A DNA stretch of 64,000 nt from Candidatus Bathyarchaeia archaeon (GCA_049516875.1 JBEKSS010000001.1:32001-96000), one strand, 5' to 3'. Shown: positions 23,335 to 46,410, numbered from the stretch's first letter. The notes: generated by a model not told the origin, from the letters alone. Translations and numbers: made by a program.

Positions 23335-23548
23335 CATAAGCGACGCGCGCGCATAAGAACCCCTGCCTGTGACCTCAAGTTTGTTACGGTATGTGTCAGA
23401 GACCCTTTTCGTTCCCAGTTTGTTATACTCCCTCTCAGAAAATGCAAGCCCACTAATGCAAATAGTATTGCAGAAGCCTGTTGGTACGTCTTTCCCACAG
23501 CATATATTCAGCACGCCTTACAAAGACGAACGTCCCAAAGCTGCTCTT

Positions 23549-23647
23549 TTACCTTCTCTTCTGTTTTTTTCCACCACGAGCTCTTCTCGTCTGATGACCC
23601 TTCTGTCTATCAATCGTTTTTCCAGCGGGTTTGTTTCTCTTGCTCAC
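23549..23647 (-). CDS. Basic microprotein (32 aa), paralog of 46146-46259
   Basis: MSKRNKPAGKTIDRQKGHQTRRARGGKKQKRR; GAGGTGA SD. Confidence 0.7.
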   Translation of the reverse strand: MSKRNKPAGKTIDRQKGHQTRRARGGKKQKRR

Positions 23648-23924
23648 GTTCTGTCACCTCTATCTCAATCACCCATCCCAAACAAATTCAGTAGCGCCAC
23701 ACTTCAGTTGTTATCGAGAAGACATATAAATCAAGCTTTCCATGCAGTGCCGCATGCAACGTTGGCGCTATTCAAAAAGACCAGTGCCCCCTAAGGGCTT
23801 TTGAGGGTAGAGGAAAAAAGTGTTTGAAGCGCGATTGAAACACGATTTTGTAACAAGAAAATGGAAGAAACCACACATTTCACGAGTATGCGCCAAACTC
23901 CAAAAGCTTAGTGTACGCCAAGCG

Positions 23925-24110
23925 CATGACACGAGTCTCCAGCAAACACGAACTACAAGCCACCAACCGTTTGAGCCTCAAAAAAACCACGGATTGAGTA
24001 CTCAAAAGCAGAAGGTCGAAACCCGACATGCAACCCGCACGAACAACCATCAGAATTCACCTTTTGACACTCAAAGAAATCACGGATTGAATACTCAAAA
24101 GCAAGGGCTC
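23925..24110 (-). repeat. Double-palindrome intergenic repeat, two tandem copies
   Basis: TTTGAGCCTCAAAAAAACCACGGATTGAGTACTCAAAAGCA (to 24010) and a diverged copy 24061-24110. Confidence 0.85.
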
Positions 24111-24116
24111 TGGATC

Positions 24117-25418
24117 TCAGCCTTTCAGCTTCTCGGCGACCTCTTCGATTTTGACGGTTTTCTGCTCTCTCTTCGCCAGATCTCGCACCACAACCGCTCC
24201 CTCCTTCAGCTCTCTTTCTCCCACCATCACAGCGTAGCTCATCCTTCTTCTGTCCGCGTCCTCCAAGGCTCTAGCCATCTTCCGCCCCATGACCTCAACC
24301 TCAACACACACTCCCGCTTCCCTAAGCATCTGCGAAACCCTCAAAGCCTCACCCCTCAACTCTTCTTTGATGGGAATAACCAGCACCGTCCTTTCATCCC
24401 CAGCCTTCCGCACGGCTTTCTCCGTAACCTTCTGCTCCTGCAACGCCAGCATCATCCTGTCCACTCCGTGAGCAACACCCACGGCGGGCGTTGGATCGCC
24501 CCCGAACAGCTCGATAAGCCTGTCGTACCTTCCGCCTCCGCCCAGCGCTAAATCCATGCCTGGCACGTACACCTCAAGAATCATTCCCGTGTAATACTCA
24601 AGCCCCCTCGCGAAACCCGCGTCCACCATCATGTCAACCTTGCACCCGCTCTTCAGGACAAGAGTCAGGATTTCGCCGAGGTTTCTCGCAGCCTCAACAG
24701 ACTTCTCATAACCCTTCACAAGCTCGGTTATCCTGTCAGCCACCTCGAGAACGTCGCTGCCCCTGAGCTTCACCAGCTTTCGAAGCGTCAACATACACTT
24801 TTGCGACACGCCGGCATTTTCCACCAGCTTGAAAGCGTCGTCATACTGCTTCTTGTCCATCAGCTGCATGACCGCGCTCTGCACCTTGTCCACAACCTTC
24901 TCCTGGTTCAGCATCCCCCTCAGAACACCGACGTGACCAACCTTCAACGCAAACTTGTTCAACCCCGCGGCCCGCATCAAGCTGTTCGTCAGCAAAAGGA
25001 TTTCAGCGTCCGCCTCCGGCCTGCCGGAACCCATCAGCTCGTAGTTCGTCTGCCAAAACTCTCTGTAACGGCCCCGCTGCGGCTCATCATAACGGTATAT
25101 GCTCCCAACCGAGAAAAGCCTGAACGGTCTGGGTTCGTTCCGCAACGTCGTAGCTACGAGCCTGGCCACGGAGGCCGTGAACTCTGGGCGCAGTGCGACG
25201 TCTCTTTCGCCCAGATCCTTGAACACGAACATGCGCGACTTGACCTCTTCCCCGGCTTTCGCTGACAGCAACTCGTACGACTCCACAACGGGCGTCACAA
25301 TCTCCTTGTACCCGTAAAGACACGCCACTTCCTTGGCCTTGCCTTCAACAAGTCTCAGCAGCCTGGCTTCTTCGGGCAGGAAGTCCCTCATGCCGCGGAC
25401 GGTCTTGAACTCGGCCAT
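24117..25418 (-). CDS. hisS: Histidyl-tRNA synthetase
   Basis: RGMRDFLP, LRPEFTAS, RYDEPQRGRYREF, RGLEYYTG, GGGRYD. Confidence 0.97.
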   Translation of the reverse strand: MAEFKTVRGMRDFLPEEARLLRLVEGKAKEVACLYGYKEIVTPVVESYELLSAKAGEEVKSRMFVFKDLGERDVALRPEFTASVARLVATTLRNEPRPFRLFSVGSIYRYDEPQRGRYREFWQTNYELMGSGRPEADAEILLLTNSLMRAAGLNKFALKVGHVGVLRGMLNQEKVVDKVQSAVMQLMDKKQYDDAFKLVENAGVSQKCMLTLRKLVKLRGSDVLEVADRITELVKGYEKSVEAARNLGEILTLVLKSGCKVDMMVDAGFARGLEYYTGMILEVYVPGMDLALGGGGRYDRLIELFGGDPTPAVGVAHGVDRMMLALQEQKVTEKAVRKAGDERTVLVIPIKEELRGEALRVSQMLREAGVCVEVEVMGRKMARALEDADRRRMSYAVMVGERELKEGAVVVRDLAKREQKTVKIEEVAEKLKG

Positions 25419-25436
25419 TCTCAGCTTTCTCCGTTG

Positions 25437-25988
25437 TCACTTCAGATTTAGTTCTGAAACGGAGTAGTAAACTATTTCTCCTCTGCGGTTCATGACCGCC
25501 AGGACGAGCTCCTTCTTGAGGCTGAGGCTCTGCGTCAGCGCGCGGCTCAGGCTTTCAACCGCAATGGGCTTTCCCTCCTGAACGCTGACTATCAGGTACT
25601 TGGCCGTGTCCTTGCTGTAGTTGCCCCTCTCGTAAACTCGAAAGTCGACGCCCTGGCCGAAGCCTTCCCGCACGACGTACCCCCTGCTTCTCAAATCGCG
25701 GAAAACCAGGTAACACGCCCAAGCGTTCTCGTTAACCGTCTCGTAACACTGGAGCAGCCGCTGGAAACCCACTCTGTCATCGTTCTCGTCCCCAACCTCC
25801 AGCATCGCCCTGTCCACAAGGTAGAGCGCCTCGTAAAACGTTAGCTGAAAAGTCTTCTTTCCCGGCACTCCGTAGCCTCTGGAGGCAAGCTCGTTGACGA
25901 ACCGTTTTTCAGAAACCTTCACGCCCTCTTTGACGAGCAGGCCCTTGGCTCTGAGCTCCGGCGCGCTTGGCTCTTCACTCTTGCTCAT
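25437..25988 (-). CDS. endA: tRNA splicing endonuclease subunit, probably structural
   Basis: YEALYL, VFRDLRSRGYVV, DFRVYERG; catalytic His not present. Confidence 0.82.
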   Translation of the reverse strand: MSKSEEPSAPELRAKGLLVKEGVKVSEKRFVNELASRGYGVPGKKTFQLTFYEALYLVDRAMLEVGDENDDRVGFQRLLQCYETVNENAWACYLVFRDLRSRGYVVREGFGQGVDFRVYERGNYSKDTAKYLIVSVQEGKPIAVESLSRALTQSLSLKKELVLAVMNRRGEIVYYSVSELNLK

Positions 25989-26017
25989 CTGGACCCCCCG
26001 CTAGCTTAGGAGCGTCT

Positions 26018-27043
26018 TCACTTATAGCGGTTGGCCTGAAGCCGTTTCAAATCTTTCCTGCGTAATACGCCGGTTTCGCATACGATGGCTGAGACGTACT
26101 TGAACGGGGTTACGTCGAATGCCGGGTTCAGGACGTCGACTCCTTCGGGGGCGATGCGTTGCTGGCCTATATGCGTGACTTCTTCGGGCTTGCGTTCCTC
26201 GATGACAACCTGTGCGGACGTGTGGGCCATGTCGAACGTGGATTTGGGTGCTGCGACGTAGAAGGGAATCCTGTGTTGTTTGGCTAAGACAGCGACGGTG
26301 AAGGTGCCGATCTTGTTGATGACGGCGTCTCGGACTATGCGGTCTGCTCCCACGATGACCTTGTTCACCATGCGCTTGCTCATCACGTAGCCCACCGTGC
26401 CGTCCGTGATCAATGTTACCGGTATGCCTGCTCGCTTGAGCTCGTAAGCGGTCAGCCTTGCGCCCTGCAGGAGTGGGCGAGTCTCATCCGCGAAAACCCT
26501 GAACCTTTTCCCCTGTTCCCAAGCGGTCTTCAGGACACCTAGGGCCGTGCCAAAGTCCACAGTGGCCAGTGCGCCGGCGTTGCAGTGCGTCAACACAGCA
26601 TCTCCGTCAAGGATGAGCTTGGCGCCGTGCTTGCCAATCAGGCGGTTTGAAGCCGCGTCCTCCTCGGCAATCCTGTTTGCTTCCTCAACGACGGAGGCGG
26701 CCACATCGTCGGCACTGCCTAACGCGGTCTTGGCTTTGTCAAGGATTCTGTCCAGAGCCCAGAAGAGGTTGACGGCCGTGGGCCGTGTTGCCCTTATGGT
26801 CGCAGCGGCCCTTTCGAGTTCGCTGACCAGTTCTTTCTTGGTCTTCGCTTCTGAGTTGTGTGCTGTCAGGGCTAGGGCGTAGGCGGCGGCTGCTCCGAGG
26901 AGGGGTGCGCCTCTTATCTTCATCGTTTTTATGGCGCCGGCCACGTCTTCGCAGTTTTTCAGGCTGAGCATGACCTCTTCGTTTGGAAGTTTCGTCTGGT
27001 CAATCGTCAGCACCGTGCCGTTGCGCCACTGTATCGTTCGCAT
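26018..27043 (-). CDS. mtnA: Methylthioribose-1-phosphate isomerase (eIF-2B family)
   Basis: IDQTKLP, IRGAP, TRPTAVNL, THCNAGALAT, ETRPLLQGARLT, NPAFDVTP. Confidence 0.9.
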   Translation of the reverse strand: MRTIQWRNGTVLTIDQTKLPNEEVMLSLKNCEDVAGAIKTMKIRGAPLLGAAAAYALALTAHNSEAKTKKELVSELERAAATIRATRPTAVNLFWALDRILDKAKTALGSADDVAASVVEEANRIAEEDAASNRLIGKHGAKLILDGDAVLTHCNAGALATVDFGTALGVLKTAWEQGKRFRVFADETRPLLQGARLTAYELKRAGIPVTLITDGTVGYVMSKRMVNKVIVGADRIVRDAVINKIGTFTVAVLAKQHRIPFYVAAPKSTFDMAHTSAQVVIEERKPEEVTHIGQQRIAPEGVDVLNPAFDVTPFKYVSAIVCETGVLRRKDLKRLQANRYK

Positions 27044-27082
27044 GGCTTTTGCCTCGTAAACCGCTTATGCTTCGGGTGTATA

Positions 27083-27796
27083 ATGTTTGTCGGCCAGGTG
27101 AAAAAGGTTATGAAAACGGTGAGCCTCAGAACGTTTGTTGAAGCCTTTGGGCAGAGGTATTCTGAGGTTTTGGGCATAGAGGTTTCAGGCGGTGGTGATG
27201 GGGAGGTTTTCAAGTGGTTTTTGGCTTCGTTGCTGTTCGGCGCCCCCATCACGGAGTCAGCGGCCATCAGGACTTACCGCTGTTTCGAGAAGCGCGGTGT
27301 TCTGGCGCCGGGGCGGATTCTCAGGACCGGGTGGGACGGTCTGGTCGAAATCTTGGACGAGGGCGGCTACACGCGTTACGACTTCAAGACGGCGGACAAG
27401 CTTCTGGAGGTTGGGGGGAACCTTGTGGAAGCGTACTCTGGGAGTCTCAGCCGTGTTCACGGTTCGGCTTCTGACTCGCGTGATTTGGAGAGGAGGTTGA
27501 AAGGCTTGGGGAAGGGGGTTGGAGACGTGACGGTGAGCATTTTTCTGAGGGAGCTGCGGAGCGTGTGGGAGAAGGCTGATCCTTTTCCGACGGGTCTCGA
27601 GGTTCTTGCTGGTGAACGGCTCGGAATCCTGAAGAATGGAGCTGAAGCCGAAGAGGCTTTGAAACGGTTGAAGGGTTTCTGGGCCAGGAACAGGGTTGCT
27701 GGAAAATCGTTCGTGCAGTTTGAAACTGCTTTGCTCAGGCTGGGCAAGGAGTGCAGAAAGGGAGAATGCAGTGTTCGCTTGGCCAAGCGTGGGTAG
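27083..27796 (+). CDS. HhH-GPD superfamily DNA-glycosylase-like protein
   Basis: FKWFLASLLFG, GGYTRYD, KGVGDVTVSIFLREL. Confidence 0.75.
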   Translation: MFVGQVKKVMKTVSLRTFVEAFGQRYSEVLGIEVSGGGDGEVFKWFLASLLFGAPITESAAIRTYRCFEKRGVLAPGRILRTGWDGLVEILDEGGYTRYDFKTADKLLEVGGNLVEAYSGSLSRVHGSASDSRDLERRLKGLGKGVGDVTVSIFLRELRSVWEKADPFPTGLEVLAGERLGILKNGAEAEEALKRLKGFWARNRVAGKSFVQFETALLRLGKECRKGECSVRLAKRG

Positions 27797-27801
27797 CGCT
27801 G

Positions 27802-27908
27802 TATGTTGGAGTTCGAGTCCTTGCTTTTGAGTACTCAATCCGTGGTTTTTTTGAGACTCAAAAGGTTGATGGCGCGTGGTTCTGTGTTTGTTGGAGGCTC
27901 GTGTCATG
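27802..27908 (+). repeat. Double-palindrome intergenic repeat, copy 3
   Basis: TTGCTTTTGAGTACTCAATCCGTGGTTTTTTTGAGACTCAAAAGGTTG. Confidence 0.85.
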
Positions 27909-28085
27909 AGCTTGGCGGGCTGAGTGAGAATTTGCGGTTTTGTCTATCAGAAGGTAACAGTTTCGTGTGGCAACACCGTAGCAACCATTTTTTCGGAAAG
28001 CGCGCGAGTATGTCGGAAAAAAGATTTAAAGGCAAAACTGATGGATAGTTCTTGTATAGATTGAGATGTCGGTTGGGGGCATGTT

Positions 28086-29634
28086 ATGGACAACAGCGAT
28101 TTCTTCCTGGGGTTTGCTGCTCATGCGCACACTAAGAGTGAGCTTGGAATCGATCAGGTGAAGGAGGAGCTGAGGAGGGCAAATAGCGCAGAGGAAGCTC
28201 AGCGGCTGGCAGAAATGGTTCTTGATAGGCTTGCAACAGACGTCTCAAAAAGCGGATGTAGGCTTGATGATGTGAAACTGTTGGTCCTGTATGTGAGTTA
28301 CAGGGGAGAACCCGAAGAGAAGGATACTGTGATGTGCGAATCGATTCTGCGGTGCATCAAAGAGAGATTTGAGAAAGGTTCTGCTGCAAACCAGGTCCGA
28401 CTAATCGGACATACGACGGGTGGCGAACTGGAGAACGAAGACCTTGTGCTGAAGGAGGTTTCAGACATCGGGTACAATGGTTTGTCTCTTTTGGCTCTGG
28501 TTACAAACTTTCCAATAGGCGTGGGGCGAACTTGGAGTCTTCGAACGGCAAAGGAAGCAGGAGAGCAAGGGATGGAGATGGCTCGTGATGCGAGCGTTGA
28601 TTTCAGCCAACAGACTACAAACAAAGAGCAGCTACAAACTGGAAAGACTCTGCTTGTATTGACGCAAGGATCGAAAGTTGACACTCCAGGTTATGAGCAT
28701 TTCCTAGCCGAGGGAATTGCCAACTTCATGGGCAGCAACCGCGACGCAAGAATAGTGAACGTAATAGGCGGGAGCAGCGGTGATGGAATGACTGGCAAGG
28801 TTATTCATCAATTCTATGGCAGTTTGAAAGGGCAATCACAGTTTAGAGTTCTTGATGGTGAAGCAGTATGTGCTTTGATTCCCAACTTGCGTGAGACCTC
28901 TATAGGTGTCGACATAGGAACAGGAACGAGAATTGGAAGGCAGCACATATTTCATTTTGACCGTGAGAAGGAACTCCACTTCAAGTACGTTAAACGCATC
29001 GGCAACTAGGATTCTTGTACAAAGTATGCCAACATGATTTATGAAAATGAAGTTCGACTATCCAAGGAAAAGGGCTTGCCAATAGTTGACAAAAAAGTCA
29101 TTATACAGGGAATTTCCGATGCCCGCGCACAAAAAAGAATTTTAGTGTTCAATCCTATTCTGTACAGATACGCTTTCGCTTTTCCTTTTGGCAACTATGT
29201 TGCTAATGTCCCTCTGCGAGTGGTAGACGAAGATCTTGAACTTATCTTTCCAGTTAGAAGCTACACTCCCGAGATGCCAGGTTACTTTCATATTAGTTGA
29301 TCATGAGAAAATTCAGAAAGGAGCTCGCCGCGTGCATGATATACTGAGAGTAGATCAGGGCTTCAACTCTTGCATGAACAGGAGACTGGTTGAGCTGATG
29401 GCTGGATGTATATCTGGGACTGAAGCTGAGATATTGAAAGAAGGGCTTTCATCAACTCAGGTTATAGGATTTCTGGCATATGGCGAGATGGCATTCACTC
29501 ATCTAATCCAAGAGCCATACTTTCACGCCGGCAGATGCTGGGGAATCACACTTCATTCCAAAACTGCAACAACCGAATCGAAGGAAAAGAAAACTGAACT
29601 TGGCATTAATGGCTGGATTAAAGGAAAAACATAG
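28086..29634 (+). pseudogene. FIST-domain sensory protein, disrupted
   Basis: IGHTTGGE, GGSSGDG, IGFLAYGE motifs split by in-frame TAG (29007-29009) and a frameshift near 29285. Confidence 0.75.
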
Positions 29635-29919
29635 CCGGCAAACTAGTTTTGCAAGACTTGCAGAGCGCGCACAAAAATTCTCTCTTCAAACACTAGATGT
29701 GCAGCAATCTTATAGAGAGGCGATCGTTGGAGATGTTGCGAAGCTAATCAAATGCAAAGAACTGAAAAGTGCGCAGTGAACTTATGGAGCGCATCACTCC
29801 TTTTCTAGGCTTTCTGAGAATTTCAAGAAGAACAGGAAAATGACAGTTTTGTTACACTTTTCTGCTATAATTCCCCATGATTTTCCACGCTCTCAATAAG
29901 AACGCGAGCGTTTGTTTGG

Positions 29920-30678
29920 CTAGGTGTGAATGCTCGGTTCGTAGGGTGCTTTGACGTATGTTATGACTTCTACTGGGCATTCGCCTGAGAGTTTGAGGGT
30001 TTTTTTCCATTCTTCTCCTACGGCTATGAGGAGGAAGACTCCTGACATTTCGGCTTTGGCTTTTTTGACGAGGCTGACGAGTGCGGCTTGGGTTTCTCCG
30101 GTTTTGATCATGTCGTCGACGACGAGTACGCTGTCGCGTTTTTTGATGGCTTCTTTTGGGATGTAGAGAGTTGAGGTGACGCCTGAGCCTTTGAGGAGGA
30201 CGTAGGTTTCTTCGAGGAAGGCTTTGACGCCGATTTCTTTGGTTTTTTTTGCGACTACGAGGTTGACTCCGAGGGTGTTTGCGACCATGGTTGCGAGGGG
30301 TACGCCGTCGACGGCGACTGAGAGGACTTTTGTGACGCGTTTTCCAGCGAAATTCGCGAGGGCGTGGTTGGCGGCTTGTTGGAGGATGTTGTAGTCGCCT
30401 ATGATTTCGGTGTTGTCGAAGTAGCCGTCTTCGTCGAATTTTATTCTGCTGCGCAGTTCGGGTTCGAGGCCGACGAGTCTTGTGAGAACTTTCCAGAGCT
30501 GTTTTGCTCTGGCGGTGTTGGGCAGGACGTGGCCTTTCGCGTATCGGCTGAGGACGGTTACGGGCAGGCCGGTTTTCGAAGCGAGTTCGCGGTAGGTTAT
30601 GTTTCGTTTGTACTTTGCGGTTCTGAGAAGTTCTATGGTCATCAACCTGAGTTTCAAATCTTCCGCATGCGTGCTCAT
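29920..30678 (-). CDS. HTH + phosphoribosyltransferase domain protein (PurR-like regulator)
   Basis: TYRELASKTGLPVTVLSRY; VLVVDDMIKTGET. Confidence 0.88.
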   Translation of the reverse strand: MSTHAEDLKLRLMTIELLRTAKYKRNITYRELASKTGLPVTVLSRYAKGHVLPNTARAKQLWKVLTRLVGLEPELRSRIKFDEDGYFDNTEIIGDYNILQQAANHALANFAGKRVTKVLSVAVDGVPLATMVANTLGVNLVVAKKTKEIGVKAFLEETYVLLKGSGVTSTLYIPKEAIKKRDSVLVVDDMIKTGETQAALVSLVKKAKAEMSGVFLLIAVGEEWKKTLKLSGECPVEVITYVKAPYEPSIHT

Positions 30679-30827
30679 AACAACAGCCTCTTATACACTG
30701 ATAAGTCAAACCTTAACGTGTTCCCCTTCTATTATTGCACTAGCGATATATACTTTGCTGGGTGTGAGAAAACGCCATGTCTGCGGGCTGCTAGGGTCTT
30801 CTGCGAACCTTTCGTTTGAGGCTGCGC

Positions 30828-30898
30828 ATGTTGAGGTTCGAGCTCTTGCTTTTGAGTACTCAATCCGTGGTTTTTTTGAGGCTCAAACGGTTGATGGC
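30828..30898 (+). repeat. Double-palindrome intergenic repeat, copy 4
   Basis: TTGCTTTTGAGTACTCAATCCGTGGTTTTTTTGAGGCTCAAACGGTTG. Confidence 0.85.
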
Positions 30899-30952
30899 CT
30901 GCGAGTCTTGTTGGTTTTCCTTTGGTTTATAGTGTGTGCTGAAATGGGGTGT

Positions 30953-33394: not shown

Positions 33395-33750
33395 GTTACT
33401 TCACCGTCCATTTTACTGTCCTGTTCACCCTATTTAACAATTTATGGACGAATAGGACGAATAAGGATTGAATCATAACATATCAAAACCAATGCAAGCG
33501 TGCGCGTAAAATCCTGGCATACAACTGCTGAATTTTGTTTCACGGCTTTGTCTTGAACTTTCCCTTGCCAGAAAAAACAGTGCGCGCACGTTCAAGTTGG
33601 TATTGAACAACGCTCGGTGTATGTCGAAAGACAGACTAAGACTTATCTTACAGGCAGAAGGAGTGGACAACAATACAGCGAAGAACATAACCCTTGAGGA
33701 CCAGGCCGTTCGAAAAAGGCATCTTGCAACCATATGGATGACAGAAAACC

Positions 33751-35159: not shown

Positions 35160-35624
35160 TTATTTCTCTCTCCGCAGGAAGTCGCCTATATCCAGAATAT
35201 TCTCCACCGCTGGGCCTCCTCTTTTTCCGTCCAAGTTGCACAGTATTCTGCCAAAGCCTAGGCACTCACCATAGGAGTTTAGGACCAACGTGTATTCGTC
35301 TTTTTTCCTTGAGCCGATCACGTTCGCTATTCCTTGTTTGAATATGTCTCTGCCGCAGATGAACAGCCATTCGGTTTTCTTGTGGATGATTACTTTGTTT
35401 GATTTTTCCCTCGCGACAAAATTCAGCAAGTTGAAGCTTGGAAAGAATCTCCCATCCTTGACTTTTCCTATGTAGGCTCCTGCGTAGAAGAAGTCTTTTG
35501 ATGCTAACCGCTTCAGATTCTTGTTTAGTAGGAAGTATCGACCTTGCCTTTTCACGATGAGACTTTCGTCCAGCATGATCTTTGTTCCAAAGCGGCCTAC
35601 AAAATCGACTATGGGCTTGATCAT
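35160..35624 (-). CDS. NIP7-like PUA-domain ribosome biogenesis protein
   Basis: EWLFICGRDIF...LDIGDFLRRE; coupled to Nop2 gene. Confidence 0.75.
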   Translation of the reverse strand: MIKPIVDFVGRFGTKIMLDESLIVKRQGRYFLLNKNLKRLASKDFFYAGAYIGKVKDGRFFPSFNLLNFVAREKSNKVIIHKKTEWLFICGRDIFKQGIANVIGSRKKDEYTLVLNSYGECLGFGRILCNLDGKRGGPAVENILDIGDFLRREK

Positions 35625-36511
35625 GCAGCGTTCCGCCGTTTCAGTTTGCACACGAAGAAACCTTGGGTTTGTCCAGGCCAGATTCGTCTGCATTTTTCTA
35701 TTGAACTATCTAGGTATTTGCCGAAAACGTTTGTCAGTGCCTCTTGTCCGTGACAGCTGATTTCTTCCACTTGAAGGCTAAGGTTTCTGACGGCCCAGTC
35801 AATGTTTAACTCGTTTTCTTCAGGTTCCAAGGAACAGGTTGAATAAACTATTTCGCCGTTGTCGTTCAGAACTTTGACTGTTTCGGTCATTATCTCTCTT
35901 TGAAGCGCCGCGTTTCTTTTTACGTCATTGATTGTTCTTCTTTTGAACCAGTTTTCGTCTGCCGCGAAGTTGCCGGAGCAGGGCATGTCCAGAAGTATGC
36001 GGTCGAAACTTGCTTTCAGTTCAGAGACTTGTCTTGCATCTAGAAAGTAGACGACTGTATTTTTGACGCGGCACCGTTCCAGTTGGTTTGCCAACGCTGT
36101 CAGCCTTTGTTTTCTGATGTCTAAGGCGATTATCGCGCCTGTGTTGTGCATTGAGTCGGCCAGTTGAACGGTTTTTCCTCCTGGAGCTGCGCAGGCATCT
36201 AGCACAGTTTTGTCTTCTGATTCTGTGAATAGGGTGACGGGTATTTGAGCCGCTGCCTCTTGGATTGAGTACAGACCCAAGAGGTATTCCGATGTTGCCC
36301 CGACCGAGAATTTTGATTCACAAACCCAGTAGCCATGATCTAGGAAGGAGATCCTTTCAAGCGTTATTCCAATCGACTGTAGTCTTTGCAGGATGGTCGC
36401 TGTTTTCTCTACGTTTATGGTGTTTATTCTTATTGCCTGTCTGGGTGTTACATCTTCGTGTTTCCAGCCTAGTTCCTTATAGCGAGTTATGAAGAAGTCT
36501 TTACTTGACAT
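35621..36511 (-). CDS. NOL1/NOP2/Sun RNA m5C methyltransferase
   Basis: DACAAPGGKT, LLDMPCSG, YSTCSLEPEENE. Confidence 0.93.
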   Translation of the reverse strand: MSSKDFFITRYKELGWKHEDVTPRQAIRINTINVEKTATILQRLQSIGITLERISFLDHGYWVCESKFSVGATSEYLLGLYSIQEAAAQIPVTLFTESEDKTVLDACAAPGGKTVQLADSMHNTGAIIALDIRKQRLTALANQLERCRVKNTVVYFLDARQVSELKASFDRILLDMPCSGNFAADENWFKRRTINDVKRNAALQREIMTETVKVLNDNGEIVYSTCSLEPEENELNIDWAVRNLSLQVEEISCHGQEALTNVFGKYLDSSIEKCRRIWPGQTQGFFVCKLKRRNAA

Positions 36512-36570
36512 TGATGATAGTTTAGGGTGCTATTCATAAAAGCTTGGTGTTGACGCAGAGGTGTGAAGGT

Positions 36571-39324: not shown

Positions 39325-39652
39325 AAAGACACCCTCTCCTTAAAATCGTCGGCAATCAGGAGGCGTTACGGTCCCCTAGAACAATTGTCTCTGCTCAGAC
39401 AGTCAGCTAAGAAAACGTGCGGCAACGAAAGGTTGCTTGTCTGCGTCAAAATTATTAGAACATACATCTGGATCAGCCTGTTGAGCCTTTAGCTTCTCTG
39501 CAAATCTGCGCAATTTTGTGTTGATCACCAATATTTTGCTGTCTACAATGACAAGCCCTTACATTTAAACCAATCGGGCAATCGCAGCTGTTTTGTTTTG
39601 ACAAGTCTTAAATGTTGAAGTAGCTTATGTTGGCTGTTGCACGGGTGGTACG

Positions 39653-40111
39653 ATGAGTGAAAAACAGGCTTTTGTAATTATGATTCAAACCAGATGGTGG
39701 AATGAATTTTGCCGTCGCAATCATGAGGGAAAAAAGACTCATTCCTTTGTATTGAGAGGAATTGCGCCGCCCAAGGATGCTTCGAGGGTTCTGTTCTACG
39801 TGACTAAGCCAGTTGGTGAGATTGCTGGGTACGCCGACTTCATCGAGCGAAAAGTTGGTGATGCTGAAAGATTGTGGAGAGAGCATGGCGAGGAGTCCGT
39901 GTTGGGTTCGAAAGAGAAGTATGATGGTTTCGTAAAGGATTCGCTGAAAGTGTCTTTCGTCAGGTTCAAGGACTTGCACGAAGGAGCTGCGGCTGTACCG
40001 CTCAACTATGTTCTCATGTCCCTTGGAGTCAGAAGGTTAGGCAGAAAAGGTTTTTACATTGATAAGGAAATTGAAGACAAGTTTGTGGCGTTGATGAAGG
40101 AAAGAACCTAG
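39653..40111 (+). CDS. DUF365/PUA-like protein
   Basis: VLFYVTKPVGEIAG motif. Confidence 0.6.
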   Translation: MSEKQAFVIMIQTRWWNEFCRRNHEGKKTHSFVLRGIAPPKDASRVLFYVTKPVGEIAGYADFIERKVGDAERLWREHGEESVLGSKEKYDGFVKDSLKVSFVRFKDLHEGAAAVPLNYVLMSLGVRRLGRKGFYIDKEIEDKFVALMKERT

Positions 40112-40292
40112 AAGTATAATGAAAACAGTTTCCAACAGTATTGAGGAAGTGAATGGCAAAGTTAATAGGTCGCTTCTTTTACATCCATGTAGCCCATATT
40201 TAGGCAGTGGAAACCTAGAATGTTCGATATGTCAAAGGCAACTCCTTCACAGATATTCATGAGTTTTTCGCTACCGCAGGGAAGGTCTGATT

Positions 40293-42509
40293 ATGGTACG
40301 CTACAGGCAAGTTGAAGAAATTCAAAAGTTGATGAATTATCCGGAAATGATTAGGAACACAAGCATCATTGCTCACGTTGACCATGGCAAAACGACGTTA
40401 TCAGACAGTCTCTTGGCTGCGGCTGGAATAATAAGCGAACAGAGAGCAGGGCAGCAGCTTGCGCTTGACTCTTGGGAGCTTGAACAGAAGAGGCAGATGA
40501 CCGTTTTCGCTTCAAACATTAGCTTGGCTCACACTTACCAAGGAAAGGAATACTTGATAAACCTCATCGACACGCCAGGACACATTGATTTCAGCGGTGC
40601 AGTCACGAGAAGCCTCCGGGCCGTGGACGGCGCCCTCGTAGTGGTTGACGCTGTGGAGGGGCCTATGACTCAGACGGAAACTGTTTTGATGCAGGCGTTG
40701 CGCGAAAGGGTTAAGCCGATTCTTTTCATAAACAAGGTTGACAGGCTCATAAAAGAAATAAAATTGACGCCAGAAGACATCCAGAAGAAGTTCGCAAAAA
40801 TCATCACGCGGGTGAACACTCTCATCGAAAAGTATGCGCCGCCAGAGCACAAGAAGGACTGGCAGGTTAAGGTTGAAGACGGCGGCGTTGCCTTCGGTTC
40901 AGCCCTTCACAAGTGGGGTTTGAACCTGCCGCACATGAAAGCAAAAGGCGTGACATTCGTTGACATTATTGACGCTTACACGGGGGAACATGAGGAGGTT
41001 AACCAAAAGGTTGACGCCCTAAGCAAGAAGGCACCAGTGCAGGATCCTATCTTGGACATGTTTGTTGAACACTTGCCCAACCCGATAGAAGCTCAACCCT
41101 ACAGGCAGAGCCAGATTTGGCCTGGCGACCAGAACAGTGCCGTGGGCAAAGGGATGGCCAAGGTTGACCCTAACGGGCCAGTTCTAATGTGCGTTTCAAC
41201 GATTGAAGTTGACACTCACAGTGGAGTTGTTGCCATCGGACGTGTTTTCAGCGGCACGGTGGAAAAGGGAAAGCTTGTTCAACTCATAACTAGCCGCCAG
41301 AAAGGCACGATTCAACAGGTTTACATGAGTATGGCCGCCGACCGAGTGATAATCGAGAGAGTTCCCGCCGGAAACATTGCTGCCCTTTCAGGTTTGCCCT
41401 CTATCCACGTGGGCGAAACCGTTGCAGAAGACGGTGTGGAGACGCAGGCGTTTGAAGGGTTGAAGTATGTTTCAGACCCTGTGGTAACGGTGGCTGTTGA
41501 ACCTGCCGACGTTAAGGATTTGCCGCTTTTCGACAAGGTCATGCACAAGCTGACGACTGAAGACCCGAACCTGCACTTTTCGATAAACAAGGAAAGCGGG
41601 GAATACCTGCTGAGTGGCATGGGTGAACTTCACCTGGAAATCACGGCGTATCGCATGCAGGAAGCCAAACTGAAGGTGAACGTTAGCAAGCCCATCGTGA
41701 TATACCGAGAAACCATCAGTCATGACTATAAAGGTCCTGCGATTATGGGTAAAAGCCCCAACAAGCACAACAAGCTTTGGGTGACGATGGAGAAGCTGCC
41801 GGACGATGTGGTTGAAGCAATCAAGATGGGAAAAATCAGTGAAATGCAGACACGTGAGGAGAGACAGAAGATCCTCAAAGGGTTTGGCTGGTTGACAGAT
41901 GACGCGCGCAACGTCGTAGCCATTGAAGGCAACAACGTTCTTGTCAACAGGATCAAGGGAAGACAGTACGTTGAAGAAATAATGGATCATATAAAGTCCG
42001 GTTTCAGAGAAGCAGTGTTCACGTCAGTCTTGGCGAAGGAACCTGCGTACGGGTTGAAGATAAACTTGGAAGATGTCACGGTTCACGAAGACCCAGTGCA
42101 CCGCGGACCAGCGCAGATACTGCCCATGACTTGGCGTCCAATATGGTGCGCTTTTCTACTCAGCGACCCGAGGCTTCTTGAGCCGCTGATAAGCTTTGAG
42201 TGCAAGGTTCCGAACACGTTTGTGAGCGGCGTCATAGCCATAGTTCAAAAACGCCGAGGCAAAATATTAGACATGACAAACGAGGAAGACATGATAATCG
42301 TCAAAGCAGAGATGCCGGTTTCTGAATCGTTCGGTATAGCTGATGAACTGCGATCCTCGACCGAGGGCAGAGCGTTCTGGGCTACACAGTTCAGCCGCTG
42401 GGCCCCGGTTCCAGAGCAAATGAAAGACGAAATAATAAAGCAGATACGCGAACGCAGAGGCCTACCACCGACACCGCCGAGACCTGAAGAATTCTTCGAA
42501 GACGCATAG
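40293..42509 (+). CDS. fusA: Elongation factor 2
   Basis: AHVDHGKTT, DTPGH, NKVD, GMGELHLE, HEDPVHRGPAQ. Confidence 0.97.
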   Translation: MVRYRQVEEIQKLMNYPEMIRNTSIIAHVDHGKTTLSDSLLAAAGIISEQRAGQQLALDSWELEQKRQMTVFASNISLAHTYQGKEYLINLIDTPGHIDFSGAVTRSLRAVDGALVVVDAVEGPMTQTETVLMQALRERVKPILFINKVDRLIKEIKLTPEDIQKKFAKIITRVNTLIEKYAPPEHKKDWQVKVEDGGVAFGSALHKWGLNLPHMKAKGVTFVDIIDAYTGEHEEVNQKVDALSKKAPVQDPILDMFVEHLPNPIEAQPYRQSQIWPGDQNSAVGKGMAKVDPNGPVLMCVSTIEVDTHSGVVAIGRVFSGTVEKGKLVQLITSRQKGTIQQVYMSMAADRVIIERVPAGNIAALSGLPSIHVGETVAEDGVETQAFEGLKYVSDPVVTVAVEPADVKDLPLFDKVMHKLTTEDPNLHFSINKESGEYLLSGMGELHLEITAYRMQEAKLKVNVSKPIVIYRETISHDYKGPAIMGKSPNKHNKLWVTMEKLPDDVVEAIKMGKISEMQTREERQKILKGFGWLTDDARNVVAIEGNNVLVNRIKGRQYVEEIMDHIKSGFREAVFTSVLAKEPAYGLKINLEDVTVHEDPVHRGPAQILPMTWRPIWCAFLLSDPRLLEPLISFECKVPNTFVSGVIAIVQKRRGKILDMTNEEDMIIVKAEMPVSESFGIADELRSSTEGRAFWATQFSRWAPVPEQMKDEIIKQIRERRGLPPTPPRPEEFFEDA

Positions 42510-42618
42510 AACCAAAGCAGACCACGCCCTTCTTTTCGGCGCCTATTTTTCCCATTTTTCATTTAATCTTCAGCAAGCTTTATTGATTTTCACAGTCATA
42601 GGACTCTGATGAATTATC

Positions 42619-43224
42619 ATGATACTTGGCATTTGCGGGAGTCCAAGAAAACAGGCGACTGAGCACGTTTTAGGAGAAGCCTTGAACATATTGGAAAAAA
42701 TGGGTTTTGAAACAGAACTCTTCACGGTCAGAGGCAAGAACATCGGGTTCTGTCAGCACTGTGACTACTGCTTGAGAAACAAGGAGTGCAAGCTGAAGGA
42801 CGACATGTACATCCTTTATCCATTGCTCAGAAAGACGGAGGCGCTGGTGATAGCGACGCCAGTTTACAACGGCGGAGTGAGCGCTCAGACAAAAACCGTA
42901 ATGGATAGGTGCAGGGCTCTGTTTGCCGATGACAGGAACGTGTTGAGGTATAAAGCTGGCATGGCCATCGCAGTCGGCGGGGACAGAGCTGGAGGACAGG
43001 AGTTGGCAATTCAGCAGATCATGACTTTCTACGTCTTGAACGGCGTCATTCCTGTCAGCGGCGGTCCATTCGGAGCAAACTTGGGAGCAACTTTTTGGTC
43101 CAAGGACACTTTGAAAGATGTGAAACAGGATGAAGAAGGATTCAAGACTTTGAAAAAGACTGTGAAGAGATTCTCTGACCTTGTGAAACATAATGAGAGT
43201 AAGAAAAGAGCTCAAAATGTGTGA
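42619..43224 (+). CDS. Iron-sulfur flavoprotein / flavodoxin family
   Basis: GSPR, CQHCDYC...C, TPVY, GGQE. Confidence 0.9.
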   Translation: MILGICGSPRKQATEHVLGEALNILEKMGFETELFTVRGKNIGFCQHCDYCLRNKECKLKDDMYILYPLLRKTEALVIATPVYNGGVSAQTKTVMDRCRALFADDRNVLRYKAGMAIAVGGDRAGGQELAIQQIMTFYVLNGVIPVSGGPFGANLGATFWSKDTLKDVKQDEEGFKTLKKTVKRFSDLVKHNESKKRAQNV

Positions 43225-43823
43225 TTATGACCGAAGAGTTGGCAAGAGCTGAGAAGAAGAGGAAAGTTGCGTGGGGAATCACGGGCAGCGGAGACAGATT
43301 GCCCGAAACAATCGGCACTATGAAAAAGATGAAAGAAGAGTATCATAATGAGGTCGATGTAAGAGTTTTTCTTTCGAAGGCAGGAGAACAGGTCGTCAAA
43401 TGGTATAGGCTTTATGACCAGTTGAAACAGCATTTTGAAAAGGTCTGTGTTGAACTTAACTCTAACTCGCCGTTTCTTGCTGGTGACCTGGAACTCGGGA
43501 AATTTGAATTCTTGTTGATTGCTCCCGCGACGTCGAACACCGTGGCAAAAATTGCGGCAGGAATAACTGACACATTGCTCTGCAACTCAGCAATCATGGC
43601 TTTGAAAGGCTTCCTTCCAGTCTACATCATGCCCAGCGATTACAAGGAAGGAACAGTGGTCACAAGGCTTCCCAACGGAAAGGATCTCAAGCTGAGAATA
43701 AGGAGAGAAGACGCAGAAAATACAAGAAAGCTCTCCCTTATGGAAAATATGTTCGTGCTTGAAAAACCCGAAGACATCTGTGAGGTTTTCAGGAAGCATT
43801 TCAACACGAAAAAGCAGAAATGA
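43221..43823 (+). CDS. afpA: Archaeoflavoprotein AfpA
   Basis: VAWGITGSG, NSNSPFLAG, PATSNTVAKI, LKLRIRRED. Confidence 0.85.
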   Translation: MIMTEELARAEKKRKVAWGITGSGDRLPETIGTMKKMKEEYHNEVDVRVFLSKAGEQVVKWYRLYDQLKQHFEKVCVELNSNSPFLAGDLELGKFEFLLIAPATSNTVAKIAAGITDTLLCNSAIMALKGFLPVYIMPSDYKEGTVVTRLPNGKDLKLRIRREDAENTRKLSLMENMFVLEKPEDICEVFRKHFNTKKQK

Positions 43824-43832
43824 GAGCTGAGC

Positions 43833-44111
43833 GTGAGACCAATGAACTTTGGACTGCTCATCGTTCCACTGGTTGCTGGGATGCTGTTTGGCTACTTCTT
43901 GCGTGAAAAGAGGAGGGTCAATCTTGGCAAACTCACGTTTGGAATAATCTTGGTATTGATATTTTCCCTTGGTTTTGGCATAGGCTCAAACAGTGAATTG
44001 CTGAATTCGCTGCCCGAGGTCGGCTTAAGCGCCGTCGTGATTGCTTCGCTCGCCATAGTGTTCAGCGTCATCCTTGTCAAAGCAGTTAAAAGAACGGCTG
44101 GTCTAGAATGA
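43833..44111 (+). CDS. LysO family exporter, N-terminal subunit
   Basis: 3 TM, LIFSLGFGIGSN. Confidence 0.7.
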   Translation: MRPMNFGLLIVPLVAGMLFGYFLREKRRVNLGKLTFGIILVLIFSLGFGIGSNSELLNSLPEVGLSAVVIASLAIVFSVILVKAVKRTAGLE

Positions 44112-44716
44112 TAAAATACATCTTAGCTACGTTACTGCTTGGAGGAGTCGCAGGCTATCTGGACGCGAATTGGGCGAGTGTCGTCAATAGTGCTTGGGTT
44201 TCCGATTATTTGCTGAATGCCTCACTCATGCTGCTGTTGTTTGTTATGGGAGTAGCCCTTGCTATGGACAAGGACTCCATTGCGAAGATAAGGCTGAGAG
44301 GACTCCGGATCTTGATTGTTCCCTTAGCAATTGCGTTGGGCACCATTCTTGGCGGTGTGGTCAGCGCGCTGATACTTGGCATTAACGTGGTTGCGACGAC
44401 CGCGGTAAGCGCAGGGTATGGCTGGTACACGTTGACAGGCCCGCTCGTGGGCCAGATTTTCGGAGCAAAGTGGGGAGCACTCGGCTTTGCCGCGAACTTC
44501 CTGAGAGAACTGTTGACCATAATCACCGTTTCTTTGATGGTTAAAGTTGACAAGTACGCGCCAACTGCATCAGGCGGCGCAACAGCCATGGACACAACAC
44601 TGCCAATCATCGTGCGTTACTGCGGCTCTGACACGCTGATCACAGCGTTTTCAAGCGGCTTTGTACTAACCATGATAGCTCCTTTCACAATAATGGCAAT
44701 AGCCTCGCTAGGCTGA
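44108..44716 (+). CDS. LysO (DUF340) family exporter
   Basis: GYGWYTLTG, NFLRE, GGATAMDTTLP. Confidence 0.88.
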   Translation: MIKYILATLLLGGVAGYLDANWASVVNSAWVSDYLLNASLMLLLFVMGVALAMDKDSIAKIRLRGLRILIVPLAIALGTILGGVVSALILGINVVATTAVSAGYGWYTLTGPLVGQIFGAKWGALGFAANFLRELLTIITVSLMVKVDKYAPTASGGATAMDTTLPIIVRYCGSDTLITAFSSGFVLTMIAPFTIMAIASLG

Positions 44717-44843
44717 GTTCCCTCCCAGACACCGTTAACTTATTCTTCATGATGTTATGATTCGCATCGAGGAAATTGGTCTAGTGACTCGGTGAATCTG
44801 GCAGGTGTTTTTGATTGTTGTGCTATCTTCTAGCGCGCATGCT

Positions 44844-44952
44844 TGTTCCTAAATTCGTTTGCGACATATCTCGTACTTCTCTCTTCATAGTACGTTCCAT
44901 TAGAGAGGCACACAACTCAACCCTGCCACACATTAAGAAAGGAATTTAGGAA
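44844..44952. mobile_element. 111-bp MITE, copy B (inverted, last 2 nt lost)
   Basis: 109 nt identical to reverse complement of 22007-22115. Confidence 0.85.
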
Positions 44953-45040
44953 ATCCATTCCCATGAAGTCGAAGGAACAATTTCAGTCTTCTAGTGTCCC
45001 CGCTTATTATAAATACTAGTTATAGCAAGGAATACTAGGG

Positions 45041-45382
45041 ATGTTTTTGACCAGATTCTTGGCATTGTGGCATGAGAACCCGTTAGCACCATGGCCTAAG
45101 GATCCCGCTGAGCTTTCAAAATTGAGAGAAAAAATGTGGGACGGTATAGACAACCTCCTGAAGAAGGGCGAAATCAAAGAGTTCGGCTTCTTTCTGGACG
45201 GAACATCAGGATACGCAATTGGCGAAAAAGATTCAGAAACTACTTTCAGAAACATAAGCATGTTCTTGCCCTACTACGTTTCGAGCGTACATGAAATAAT
45301 ACCCTACGAGAAAGGCAAGGAAATCTTGGGGACTCTCTGGAAAGCTCAATCGAAGATGTTGCACGGGCAAAGTCAACGATAG
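45041..45382 (+). CDS. Hypothetical protein
   Basis: 113 aa ORF with TATA-like TTATAAA upstream. Confidence 0.65.
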   Translation: MFLTRFLALWHENPLAPWPKDPAELSKLREKMWDGIDNLLKKGEIKEFGFFLDGTSGYAIGEKDSETTFRNISMFLPYYVSSVHEIIPYEKGKEILGTLWKAQSKMLHGQSQR

Positions 45383-45601
45383 CTGTCATCCGCAGACGTG
45401 ACTAGTCAAACAAATCTCATCTCTCTTTTTCTATAACCTGATCTTGTTGCTTTATTCCAGCATAGGAATAAGCCGAGCACTTCAAGATTCGATGAGAAAA
45501 GAAACCTTGAAACAGATGAGACTAGAGCGTGCGCTCTTCTGCGACCTTTTCTGAAGTTCATCTTTAACGCGTTGTGGCTTTGAGTTTTGCAATAGATTGA
45601 T

Positions 45602-45850
45602 TCAGAAGTTTCCGCGAGCGCGAGCAAGTTTGTACTTTCTATCTGATTCGTCGATTGAGTGATCGCGATCGATGGACGCTTGCTTGATATAGTTGTGTTC
45701 GCTTAGGTAGGCCATCACGATTGATCTGACTATTTCTGCGTCTTCTGTTCCAAAGCCTTTCAATGACCGGATAATATTCATCTGGTCTTCGTCGAAAGTC
45801 ACATTAACTGATTTGTGCGAGTTTGCGCTTTGATCAATCGCATTTGTCAT
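45602..45850 (-). CDS. Ribbon-helix-helix (CopG-like) protein
   Basis: SVNVTF...LKGFGTEDAEIVRSIVMAYLSE. Confidence 0.7.
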   Translation of the reverse strand: MTNAIDQSANSHKSVNVTFDEDQMNIIRSLKGFGTEDAEIVRSIVMAYLSEHNYIKQASIDRDHSIDESDRKYKLARARGNF

Positions 45851-46016
45851 CTATTCTTTCATCTCCATGCTTTTTCATGTATTCTTTGATAGCCCTGGTC
45901 GTTTCTTCGCTTACTCTCCGGCTTGATCCGTGCTTCTGAATGACAAAGAGCAACCATTGTTTCCAAGTGCCTTCGTCCATGTTTACGCTGGTCTTCTTTT
46001 TCGGCATGTCGGTCAT
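45834..46016 (-). CDS. Small RHH-like protein
   Basis: KKKTSVNMDEGTWKQW...VSEETTRAIKEYMKKH. Confidence 0.6.
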   Translation of the reverse strand: MTDMPKKKTSVNMDEGTWKQWLLFVIQKHGSSRRVSEETTRAIKEYMKKHGDERIDDKCD

Positions 46017-46145
46017 GTTTACCGTTATACCTTTATAAGTCTGCCCTTTTATGGCTTGATGAAGCATAAAATGTGAATGGGCTATTGCCAACAGGTTTAT
46101 TTTGGAAAAGACACTATTGACGATTGAAGGGTGAGGTGACAAAAC

Positions 46146-46259
46146 ATGGGTGGAGGAAGGAATACACGTAGAAAAGTCGTCGAGAGCGCTCGCCGTGACA
46201 AAGCGAAGGGTCATCAAACGAGAAGAGCTCGCGGGGGAAAGAAACAGAAGAGAAGGTAG
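46146..46259 (+). CDS. Basic microprotein (37 aa), paralog of 23549-23647
   Basis: MGGGRNTRRKVVESARRDKAKGHQTRRARGGKKQKRR; GAGGTGA SD. Confidence 0.7.
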   Translation: MGGGRNTRRKVVESARRDKAKGHQTRRARGGKKQKRR

Positions 46260-46410
46260 AGAAGCGATCTTGGGCAGCTCATCCTTGTAAGGTACGCTTA
46301 CGATGTATATATGAGGAAAGGCACGCCGATAAGTTATTGCAATATTCTGCTTTTGCTTAGAAATGGCATGTTTTGCCTCAGAGGTTACAAACACATAAAA
46401 AATAAGAAGG

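Follow-up and report, generated by a model that had tools for sequence, protein, structure and literature searches.

Two paralogous, strongly basic microproteins of a lineage-restricted Bathyarchaeia family, with a possible role in binding RNA or ribonucleoprotein

A 64,000-nt stretch of the genome of a Candidatus Bathyarchaeia archaeon (GCA_049516875.1, JBEKSS010000001.1:32001-96000), which we call the window and whose positions we count from its first letter, contains two very short paralogous genes that encode strongly basic microproteins. Copy A (23549..23647, minus strand) runs over 32 codons from a GTG at 23647..23645 to a TAA at 23551..23549, and copy B (46146..46259, plus strand) runs over 37 codons from an ATG at 46146 to a TAG at 46257..46259. 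Both are preceded by the Shine-Dalgarno sequence GAGGTGA, which lies 6 nt before the GTG of copy A (23654..23660, minus strand) and 6 nt before the ATG of copy B (46133..46139, plus strand), with the motif and spacing of the latter kept in most relatives. The copy A peptide is an initiator residue (V/M) followed by SKRNKPAGKTIDRQKGHQTRRARGGKKQKRR, with 14 arginines and lysines against 1 acidic residue (Asp or Glu) and a computed charge of +12.6, while the copy B peptide is MGGGRNTRRKVVESARRDKAKGHQTRRARGGKKQKRR, with 16 against 2, a computed charge of +13.6 and an isoelectric point of about 12; the microprotein has a mass of 3.8-4.3 kDa and a charge of about +13. The last 17 residues, KGHQTRRARGGKKQKRR, are the same in both copies, with four synonymous differences in their codons (CAG/CAA, CGT/CGC, GGT/GGG and AAA/AAG) and different stop codons (TAA/TAG). 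An earlier note on this DNA had proposed these two open reading frames (ORFs), with their positions, strands, ribosome-binding sites and identical tails, and all of these particulars were found exactly as it had described them, both frames being intact.

The same note had taken the host for an archaeon, and this holds as well: the archaeal genes encoded in the window include a tRNA-intron endonuclease, an IF-2B family protein and HisRS, and the relatives of the microgenes are all from Bathyarchaeia. The genome to which the window belongs (2.43 Mb in 20 contigs, 97% complete) is labelled G000 below, with C for contigs, G001 and upwards for related genomes, and L for loci that carry relatives of the microgenes.

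The codons of these relatives carry the evidence that the two frames are genes. Among 67 unique sequences, the last 17 codons are variable at 16 of their 17 third positions, at 8 of the first and at 5 of the second, and the pooled ratio of nonsynonymous to synonymous differences (pN/pS) is 0.088. Given that this set had been pre-filtered by residue pattern, the test was repeated on 40 unique 37-codon genes split into two parts, for which pN/pS is 0.335 over codons 2-20 and 0.077 over codons 21-37, with pS of 0.479 and 0.492 for the two halves. Since synonymous sites are half saturated while the residues stay fixed, the conservation cannot be non-coding, and the codon pattern indicates that both ORFs are translated genes under purifying selection. 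The earlier note had claimed such selection from the synonymous changes between the two copies, and the values found, about 0.08 (tail) and 0.34 (N-terminus), lie well away from 1. In one alignment (A2), the invariant positions are G22, Q24, R26, R27, R29, G30, G31, K32, K33, Q34, K35, R36 and R37, and in the subfamily alignment of the copy A type (A5, n = 11 sequences) the mean column identity is 90%; copy B orthologues are 92% identical in two genomes of the same genus. The last 17 residues are almost invariant throughout the family, while the N-terminal half is variable and sets the subtypes, of 37 and of 31-33 residues.

An opposite reading would make the conserved unit a non-coding RNA or a regulatory leader, with the ORF incidental to it. 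It could appeal to disrupted copies that keep a very similar nucleotide sequence and to the promoter and leader being conserved in the DNA, but the variation falls at third codon positions with the residues fixed, the types of start and stop codon vary with the frame kept, and neither an Rfam match nor a structural signal was found. We therefore disfavour this reading and regard it as extremely improbable. Long ORFs also lie antisense to the two copies (45834-46520, 228 aa, and 23369-23794, 141 aa), neither with a Pfam match. They share the codon register of the microgenes, and thus the synonymous sites of the sense strand are the first codon positions of the antisense ORFs, which we treat as by-products of the AG-rich sense strand.

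The signals upstream suggest that each microgene could be expressed on its own. Copy B has a TATA-like box, TTTATTTT, at 46096..46103 (plus strand), read from the sequence as its own promoter and falling in a column that is conserved across the upstream alignment. Between this box and the likely transcript start lies the conserved element CTATTGACGATTG (46114..46126, plus strand; consensus CTATTGACAATTG), which we infer to be a putative promoter-proximal or operator site. From the usual archaeal distance between TATA box and start, the copy B transcript is predicted to start some 20 nt upstream of the ATG. The 21 sequencing runs listed for 45700-47300 are all DNA metagenomes kept as contigs, with none of RNA among them. 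Across genera, 79 unique upstream sequences keep the TATA box TTTATTTT, the element CTATTGACAATTG, the ribosome-binding site and their spacing, and in G000 the combination of TATA box, CTATTGACGATTG element and ribosome-binding site occurs only at copy B and at a third copy of the microgene, outside the window. Copy A has a different TATA-like box, TTTATATG, at 23723..23730 (minus strand), about 85 nt before its start, to which a promoter role can be attributed by inference, and its distinct promoter element aligns with those of L016, L083 and L096. A scan for sigma-70 promoters and intrinsic terminators, which is not applicable to archaeal promoters, found no terminator.

The family seems to be undescribed, as the earlier note had supposed. 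Neither peptide has a match in Pfam (hmmscan, E up to 10), NCBIfam, PHROGs or PADLOC, and the A2 profile, run against 177,635 distinct sequences of PDB chains, found nothing at E up to 10. The copy A and copy B peptides are themselves absent from a collection of 15 billion proteins, in which such relatives as occur are unnamed or "hypothetical" proteins. HMMER searches over 1.84 billion representative proteins gave 19 matches at E 0.001 or better, 3 of them at 1e-10 or better, all of which are clusters of this same family and several of which are read-through fusions or products of frameshifts. Among 2.9 million viral contigs (IMG/VR), 99 pattern matches yielded no confirmed relative. The accessible parts of the literature on small proteins of Bathyarchaeia and on archaeal ribosomes contain no account of the family, which might be present in the data files of PMC11364881, and the available passages of a report on the hibernation factor Dri (bioRxiv 10.1101/2024.11.12.623245) do not refer to Bathyarchaeia.

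In the genomes, the gene is restricted to a section of a single order, and its distribution there is still patchy. We scanned 185,579 species for the pattern, with one genome for each, and obtained 349 matches and 78 confirmed loci; the titles are Bathyarchaeia or Bathyarchaeota for 76 of these, "uncultured archaeon" for one and "uncultured bacterium" for another. Of 41 related genomes, 15 match at E 3e-4 or better with an intact frame about 38-39 codons long, matches at E 0.08-0.48 (among them G020 and G031, at E 0.08-0.24) being discounted. In a sample of 300 other genomes from the class there are 10 carriers, namely 7 of 48 in family f1, 3 of 6 in family f6 and none of 246 in all other families, and a genus-balanced sample gave 14 carriers of 24 for f1.

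We sorted the 78 loci into classes by start, frame and stop. In the canonical class (58 loci), the aligned start position is ATG, GTG or TTG, the frame is intact and a stop is present. Six loci (L066, L082, L084, L090, L091 and L102) have ACG at the start position, with ribosome-binding site and frame kept, and one (L057) has ATT; two more (L103 and L105) are 23-aa forms with a remodelled N-terminus. The remaining 11 (L056, L060, L062, L068, L070, L087, L097, L099, L100, L101 and L104) are disrupted by frameshift, internal stop, or loss of start or stop, and for 7 of these an intact copy is found in the same assembly. The expectation in the earlier note that homologues would be free of frameshifts was thus not borne out in full, and we read these 11 as decaying extra copies. 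The seven ACG and ATT loci keep the ribosome-binding site, its spacing and the frame, and some of them also have an in-frame start downstream; three synonymous changes separate L090 from L091, of which one lies before the sole internal ATG. These start positions may represent near-cognate initiation in an archaeon.

Many assemblies hold the 37-aa type and the 31-33-aa type together, and one has three copies of the short type. In G000, the third copy (G000:C6:114530-114639) is of the 37-aa type, with its promoter intact and its frame shifted by the loss of one base in the Lys-Gly-His codons; it lies 28 nt from a contig end. The same lesion is found in L101, the orthologue in L032 is intact, and those in L062 and L101 were frameshifted independently. 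The 3′ part of this copy recurs at G000:C12:62598-62695, where it is joined to what seems to be a TATA-binding-protein gene, and this repeat between C6 and C12 may be an assembly junction. The family evolves through duplication, relocation and decay, and in G000 two copies are intact and one is frameshifted.

The duplication extends beyond the stop codons. The earlier note had described a conserved non-coding segment of about 90 nt after each stop, with inverted-repeat character, and had suggested that it forms a structured RNA paired with the peptide. Similarity after the two stops is indeed present, with identical bases at 64 of 100, 85 of 130 and 127 of 199 positions and alignment scores of 17, 19 and 27, compared with -12.3+/-4.4, -15.6+/-5.3 and -22.2+/-6.1 in shuffles, none of 300 of which scored as high. 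The segment is thus alignable over more than the described length, but its non-coding nature did not stand, given that it includes the truncated start of a gene. After copy B, the intergenic segment that is common with copy A (46260..46410, plus strand) leads to a winged-helix gene of the HTH_45 type (46411..46806, plus strand; 131 aa, TTG start), which matches PF14947 at E 4.2e-10 and 39.9 bits, against a cut-off of 25.5; an orthologue of this protein in L087 reaches 51 bits. The segment contains a TATA-like sequence, CCTTGTAAGG (46283-46292, plus strand), the 10-nt self-palindrome TATTGCAATA (46335-46344, plus strand), a ribosome-binding site of GAGG type and what was ancestrally the start of the next gene, now mutated: relatives of the HTH_45 gene (L008 and L038) start about 25 nt earlier at an ATG, where the window reads ATA and then TAA. 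After copy A, the segment at 23353..23548 (minus strand) is homologous to 46260-46458 and comprises the intergenic region and a remnant of the HTH_45 N-terminus, of which only the first codons are left (about 23353-23410, reading ...RNKLEV...). The similarity between the copies ends at the octamer GCGCGCGC (23345..23352), which starts a repeat end like the termini of an element resembling miniature inverted-repeat transposable elements (MITEs), to which we return below.

The segment is alignable only with loci where an HTH_45 gene comes after the microgene. It is homologous among 10 such segments, each followed by that gene, and in these loci it contains a TATA-like CTTTATAAGG, a palindrome TTATTGCAATA, a GAGAGGT ribosome-binding site and one or two copies of a TTAGAAATGG.TTGCTTTTGC unit, with the HTH_45 ATG about 128 nt past the microgene stop. 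Since the segment is conserved only where the HTH_45 gene follows, it corresponds to the upstream region of that gene. RNAalifold gave -2.66 kcal/mol for the 10 homologous segments, with a covariation term of +0.72 and thus no covariation, and the best hand-picked stem, of 7 bp, is paired in 76.8% of cells, compared with 78.0% in shuffles, with no compensatory changes. The two segments of the window fold differently and are not unusually stable (minimum free energy z-scores of -1.26 and +0.30), and Rfam gave nothing, both at gathering thresholds and at E up to 1, save a lone CRISPR-DR2 row at E 0.54, below threshold, which we took as chance. As for inverted pairs of 8 nt or more, the copy B segment has none besides TATTGCAATA and the copy A segment has one 10-nt pair with 90% complementarity; the inverted-repeat character is thus weak and not common to both copies, and the proposed structured RNA did not survive the comparison. 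The alignments indicate instead that the segment is the upstream region and start of the adjacent HTH_45 regulator gene, and that the duplicated unit is the microgene, the intergenic region and the HTH_45 gene, now truncated after copy A.

This arrangement raises the possibility that the microprotein is a DNA-binding peptide or a co-factor of the HTH_45 protein, in a two-gene module in which the peptide would modulate the repressor or bind beside it. The HTH_45 subfamily directly adjoins the microgene in 13 of the 75 loci counted for neighbourhoods (8 times downstream and 5 times upstream); it also follows copy B in the window, and a remnant follows copy A. These counts cover the 75 GTDB loci that passed the anchor; the 94 loci fetched included some fetched twice from two collections, and L003, L005, L006, L021, L022 and L025-L027 were left out as weak or duplicate, as were L056, L068 and L104, in which the anchor pattern was unmatched. 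Strong HTH_45 orthologues are present in 8 of the 41 related genomes (E 1e-24 or better), with one further split copy, and all nine of these genomes carry the microgene, while the best HTH_45 match in the 26 genomes with no credible microgene (24 with no match, plus G020 and G031) has E 3.7e-11. The co-occurrence is no more than suggestive, as the genomes are related and are not independent observations. Moreover, ATTG/CAAT palindromes are found both in the promoter-proximal element of the microgene and upstream of the HTH_45 gene. However, six carriers (G002, G007, G010, G012, G022 and G024) have no strong orthologue, and the operator palindrome (TATTG..CAAT) is not enriched in the window, with 4 occurrences compared with 1.6 expected and 11 of 100 shuffles reaching as many. 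In the genus of the window, furthermore, it is the HTH_45 partner that decays and the microgene that remains intact: the HTH_45 gene has lost its start and acquired an extended end in G000, occurs as a split copy in G004, and is missing from G002 owing to a deletion at a GCGCGCGC junction. On balance, we consider a joint function with the HTH_45 protein unlikely.

Other neighbours have been conserved in other lineages. A conserved 80-aa protein, with no known family, is encoded within 2 kb of the microgene in 18 of the 75 loci, usually together with a gene for a protein like single-stranded DNA-binding protein (SSB). In a subtype of 8 loci, the order is a zinc-finger gene, aIF-1A, the SSB-like OB-fold gene, the 80-aa gene and the microgene, whose start overlaps the stop of the 80-aa gene. 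This overlap is consistent with translational coupling and, with the general proximity of the two genes, would fit a regulatory role in which the peptide binds another protein, such as the 80-aa protein or the SSB-like OB-fold protein, whose genes would be co-transcribed with one subtype of the microgene. However, no microgene follows the SSB-like and 80-aa pair of G000 (contig C13), most copies of the 37-aa type lie away from these genes, and a charge of about +13 with no hydrophobic residues would be unusual at a protein-protein interface. We thus regard a protein partner of this kind as quite unlikely. Separately, a protein of about 93 aa with an extremely acidic C-terminal tail (a Glu/Ser run ending in HEHRD) is encoded within about 2 kb in 8 loci (L012, L020, L030, L032, L039, L048, L088 and L095); it has no significant Pfam or NCBIfam family, and a partnership with the basic peptide is conceivable.

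In 11 to 13 of the 75 loci, the microgene is followed on the same strand, at a distance of 13-274 nt, by the start of a radical S-adenosylmethionine (SAM) gene, as would be expected if the microprotein were the precursor of a ribosomally synthesized and post-translationally modified peptide or of a peptide-derived cofactor. Yet no such gene is among the listed ORFs adjoining either copy in the window, only related genomes show the adjacency, with three of the microgenes concerned frameshifted (L070, L097 and L099). The invariant tail has no Cys, Tyr, Trp or Glu, which are the usual targets, and the enzyme matches only the hypothetical family PTO1314, mostly below cut-off; a precursor role is therefore very improbable in our judgement. 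One of the radical SAM loci, L035, has a tRNA gene, the microgene and the radical SAM gene in that order. The tRNA gene (L035 2795-2914, 120 nt; Rfam RF00005, 50.3 bits) presumably contains an intron and lies 87 nt upstream of the microgene; ARAGORN in bacterial mode, which found no tRNA in 12 loci, missed it.

In the window itself, the neighbours of copy A are a pyridoxal phosphate (PLP)-dependent enzyme of Cys/Met metabolism and HisRS, and those of copy B are the HTH_45 gene and ORFs with no Pfam match. Copy B stands at the start of a repeat-rich part of the window, 45400-51300, with a lower G+C content (0.41-0.43 between 46 and 50 kb). This part holds nine ORFs (72-243 aa) that have no Pfam match, five of which were also scanned against PHROGs and PADLOC, with no match.

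Repeats bear on a further explanation, namely that the microgene is a copy-and-move gene carried on small repeat-bounded cassettes, of a selfish or addiction type and not a housekeeping gene. The window has 20 copies of the palindromic octamer GCGCGCGC, compared with 0.81 expected (at 3042, at seven sites in 13719-15792, five in 19884-23352 and six in 48160-52230, and at 62699), and the 2.43 Mb of the genome have 447, compared with about 23 expected from base composition and with 8-29 for other G/C palindromic octamers. The sole bias in its flanks is towards A before it and T after it (54% T), and its sites are clustered, 222 of 430 gaps being under 1.5 kb compared with about 104 for random scatter. 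It abuts several rearrangement junctions, including the end of the duplicated segment of copy A and both ends of the copy B block in genomes of the same genus. A MITE-like element of about 175-190 nt, with inverted ends beginning GCGCGC (GCGCGCTAGCGTGTTGCTAAATTC), is found at 55112-55285, and elsewhere in the genome there are about 8-10 pairs of such ends spaced 185-190 nt. Solo ends at 21994-22017 (plus strand) and 23325-23352 (minus strand) bracket the PLP-dependent Cys/Met enzyme gene (22153-23334), and others at 44831-44864 (plus strand) and 46768-46805 (minus strand) bracket the block with copy B and the HTH_45 gene.

The copy B block (44995-46751; 1.3-1.8 kb) is 90-93% identical in two genomes of the same genus (G004:C4 and G002:C1), where nothing else matches within 10 kb on either side of it. 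The left flank in the window (40293-44722) is syntenic, at 87%, to G004:C15 and G002:C2, which are other contigs than those with the block, and the right flank (46760-52000) has no long match in the two genomes. Given that the block is matched while its flanks are unmatched or located elsewhere, it lies in different surroundings in close relatives. The right end of its similarity to a same-genus genome falls at a dispersed hairpin-type repeat, GGTTGGGG TAAAGTTTTAT CCCCAAACC (46723..46751), of which further copies are found at 47825-47865, 48799-48840 and 50018-50056, as well as many in the two same-genus genomes.

Thus, the varying surroundings of the block, its bracketing by inverted MITE-like ends, the multiple and decaying copies per genome, the patchy distribution and several copies lying within 100 nt of contig ends would all suit a mobile gene. 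The terminal-repeat motif, however, is near only 7 of 77 microgene loci, at 0.027 per kb compared with 0.018 per kb genome-wide, and is not enriched, and we rejected the notion that the microgene is general cargo of such cassettes. Neither viral relatives in the contigs searched, nor PHROGs or PADLOC matches, nor a transposase or toxin-like partner were found, and a function in the cell is indicated by strong purifying selection combined with saturation of synonymous sites between genera. A selfish or addiction-type gene is therefore decidedly unlikely.

The function that we tentatively favour, at somewhat less than an even chance, is that of a microprotein that binds RNA or a ribonucleoprotein (RNP). 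Binding of a nucleic acid or of the ribosome, which the earlier note had put forward, is a reasonable proposal. Each microgene would form an independent unit, with an archaeal promoter to itself, a short leader and a Shine-Dalgarno site that is nearly perfect, and the invariant tail of its product would dock on one defined, conserved and negatively charged partner. Given that glycine and glutamine are invariant besides the arginines and lysines, the tail probably fits one defined acidic surface, and a role as a non-specific polycation seems less likely than such docking. The partner would most likely be a structured RNA such as rRNA, which would make the microprotein a small ribosome- or RNP-associated protein. 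A more specific version, in which it is a lineage-specific ribosomal or ribosome-silencing microprotein of Bathyarchaeia whose tail inserts into a conserved rRNA pocket, is fairly unlikely in our estimate; under it, the two N-terminal subtypes could be condition-specific paralogues, and some lineages would start translation at ACG. The links to aIF-1A, the OB-fold protein and the tRNA gene are compatible with an RNA or ribosome target but weak.

Several observations weigh against an RNA- or RNP-binding role, and above all against its ribosomal form. The neighbourhoods vary by lineage, none is constant, and their context gives no consistent functional signal. Comparisons with Pfam, the PDB and eL39 gave no sequence similarity to any ribosomal protein or solved chain. 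One genus of the window's own family has no carrier among 14 members, those listed being 90-100% complete, and a distribution so patchy speaks against a core role in the ribosome. The assemblies with the disrupted L070, L097, L099 and L100 yielded no intact copy, and such disrupted sole copies argue, together with the patchiness, against an essential core role. The selection statistics themselves are biased towards conservation, given that the relatives were located by peptide patterns, and somewhat overstate it.

A tail whose residues do not change although its synonymous sites are about half saturated indicates a partner molecule that is specific and conserved. Bathyarchaeia are abundant in sediment and peat and few of them have been cultured; their small proteins are almost unstudied, and gene callers discard ORFs this short. 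If the ribosome is the partner, the family would be a lineage-specific ribosomal component of a major archaeal class that resists routine cultivation. It also offers a clean test case for the discovery of microproteins through codon-position statistics, and a reminder that "conserved non-coding DNA" beside paralogues may simply be a co-duplicated neighbouring gene.

Among known systems, the type I toxins and other membrane microproteins could be set aside, given that the longest hydrophobic run in the family is two consecutive residues and there is no membrane-spanning hydrophobic helix. Mycofactocin and pyrroloquinoline quinone (PQQ) are examples in which peptide precursors are encoded beside radical SAM maturases, and the tiny ORF, the invariant C-terminus and the radical SAM gene downstream in some loci recall them; unlike these systems, the window has no maturase adjoining the microgenes, the tail has no typical targets, and the association is found in one related group of genomes. 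The arginine-rich-motif peptides that bind RNA, as in the phage N proteins and the lentiviral Tat and Rev, occur within larger proteins, and their cognate hairpins are known. The microprotein resembles them in having a short stretch rich in Arg and Lys, with Gln, Thr and Gly in between, that is conserved at the level of single residues, as would be expected if one RNA shape were recognized, but it consists of the motif with a short variable head, and its sole candidate RNA in cis, the 3′ segment, has neither covariation nor unusual stability.

Comparisons with small ribosomal proteins were made family by family. By eye, the N-terminus of the 32-aa subtype (RNKP.GK) resembles the start of the eL39 (PF00832) of G000, and both proteins are small and basic; we rejected the identification, as BLASTP gave no alignment at E up to 100, hhalign gave a probability of 0.9% with 1 aligned column, and a canonical eL39 is present elsewhere (G000:C3, 53.9 bits). 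For eS30 (PF04758), the peptides have no Pfam match, and the slot is filled by G000:C9:28029-28163 (45.5 bits, above cut-off). Small EDRK-rich or TMA7-type factors, bacterial bL34, a ubiquitin-type RGG end and histone tails, which had been considered by eye, were dropped as they had no Pfam support. The peptides do not match eL41/eS32 (PF05162) at E up to 10, with a model that is itself weak, given that 0 of 14 control genomes scored above cut-off and none was found in G000.

The closest likeness is with the tiny ribosomal proteins that are restricted to particular lineages, such as Thx of Thermus, bS22 and bL37 of Actinobacteria, and eL41/eS32. The microprotein shares with them a length of 25-40 residues, extreme basicity, strong conservation within a restricted lineage and a tendency to be missed by annotation; it differs in being patchy within one family and in having two to three paralogues as well as pseudogenes per genome. 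Thus, judged by its sequence, the family appears to be new, while its kind, that of a tiny basic protein, is familiar.

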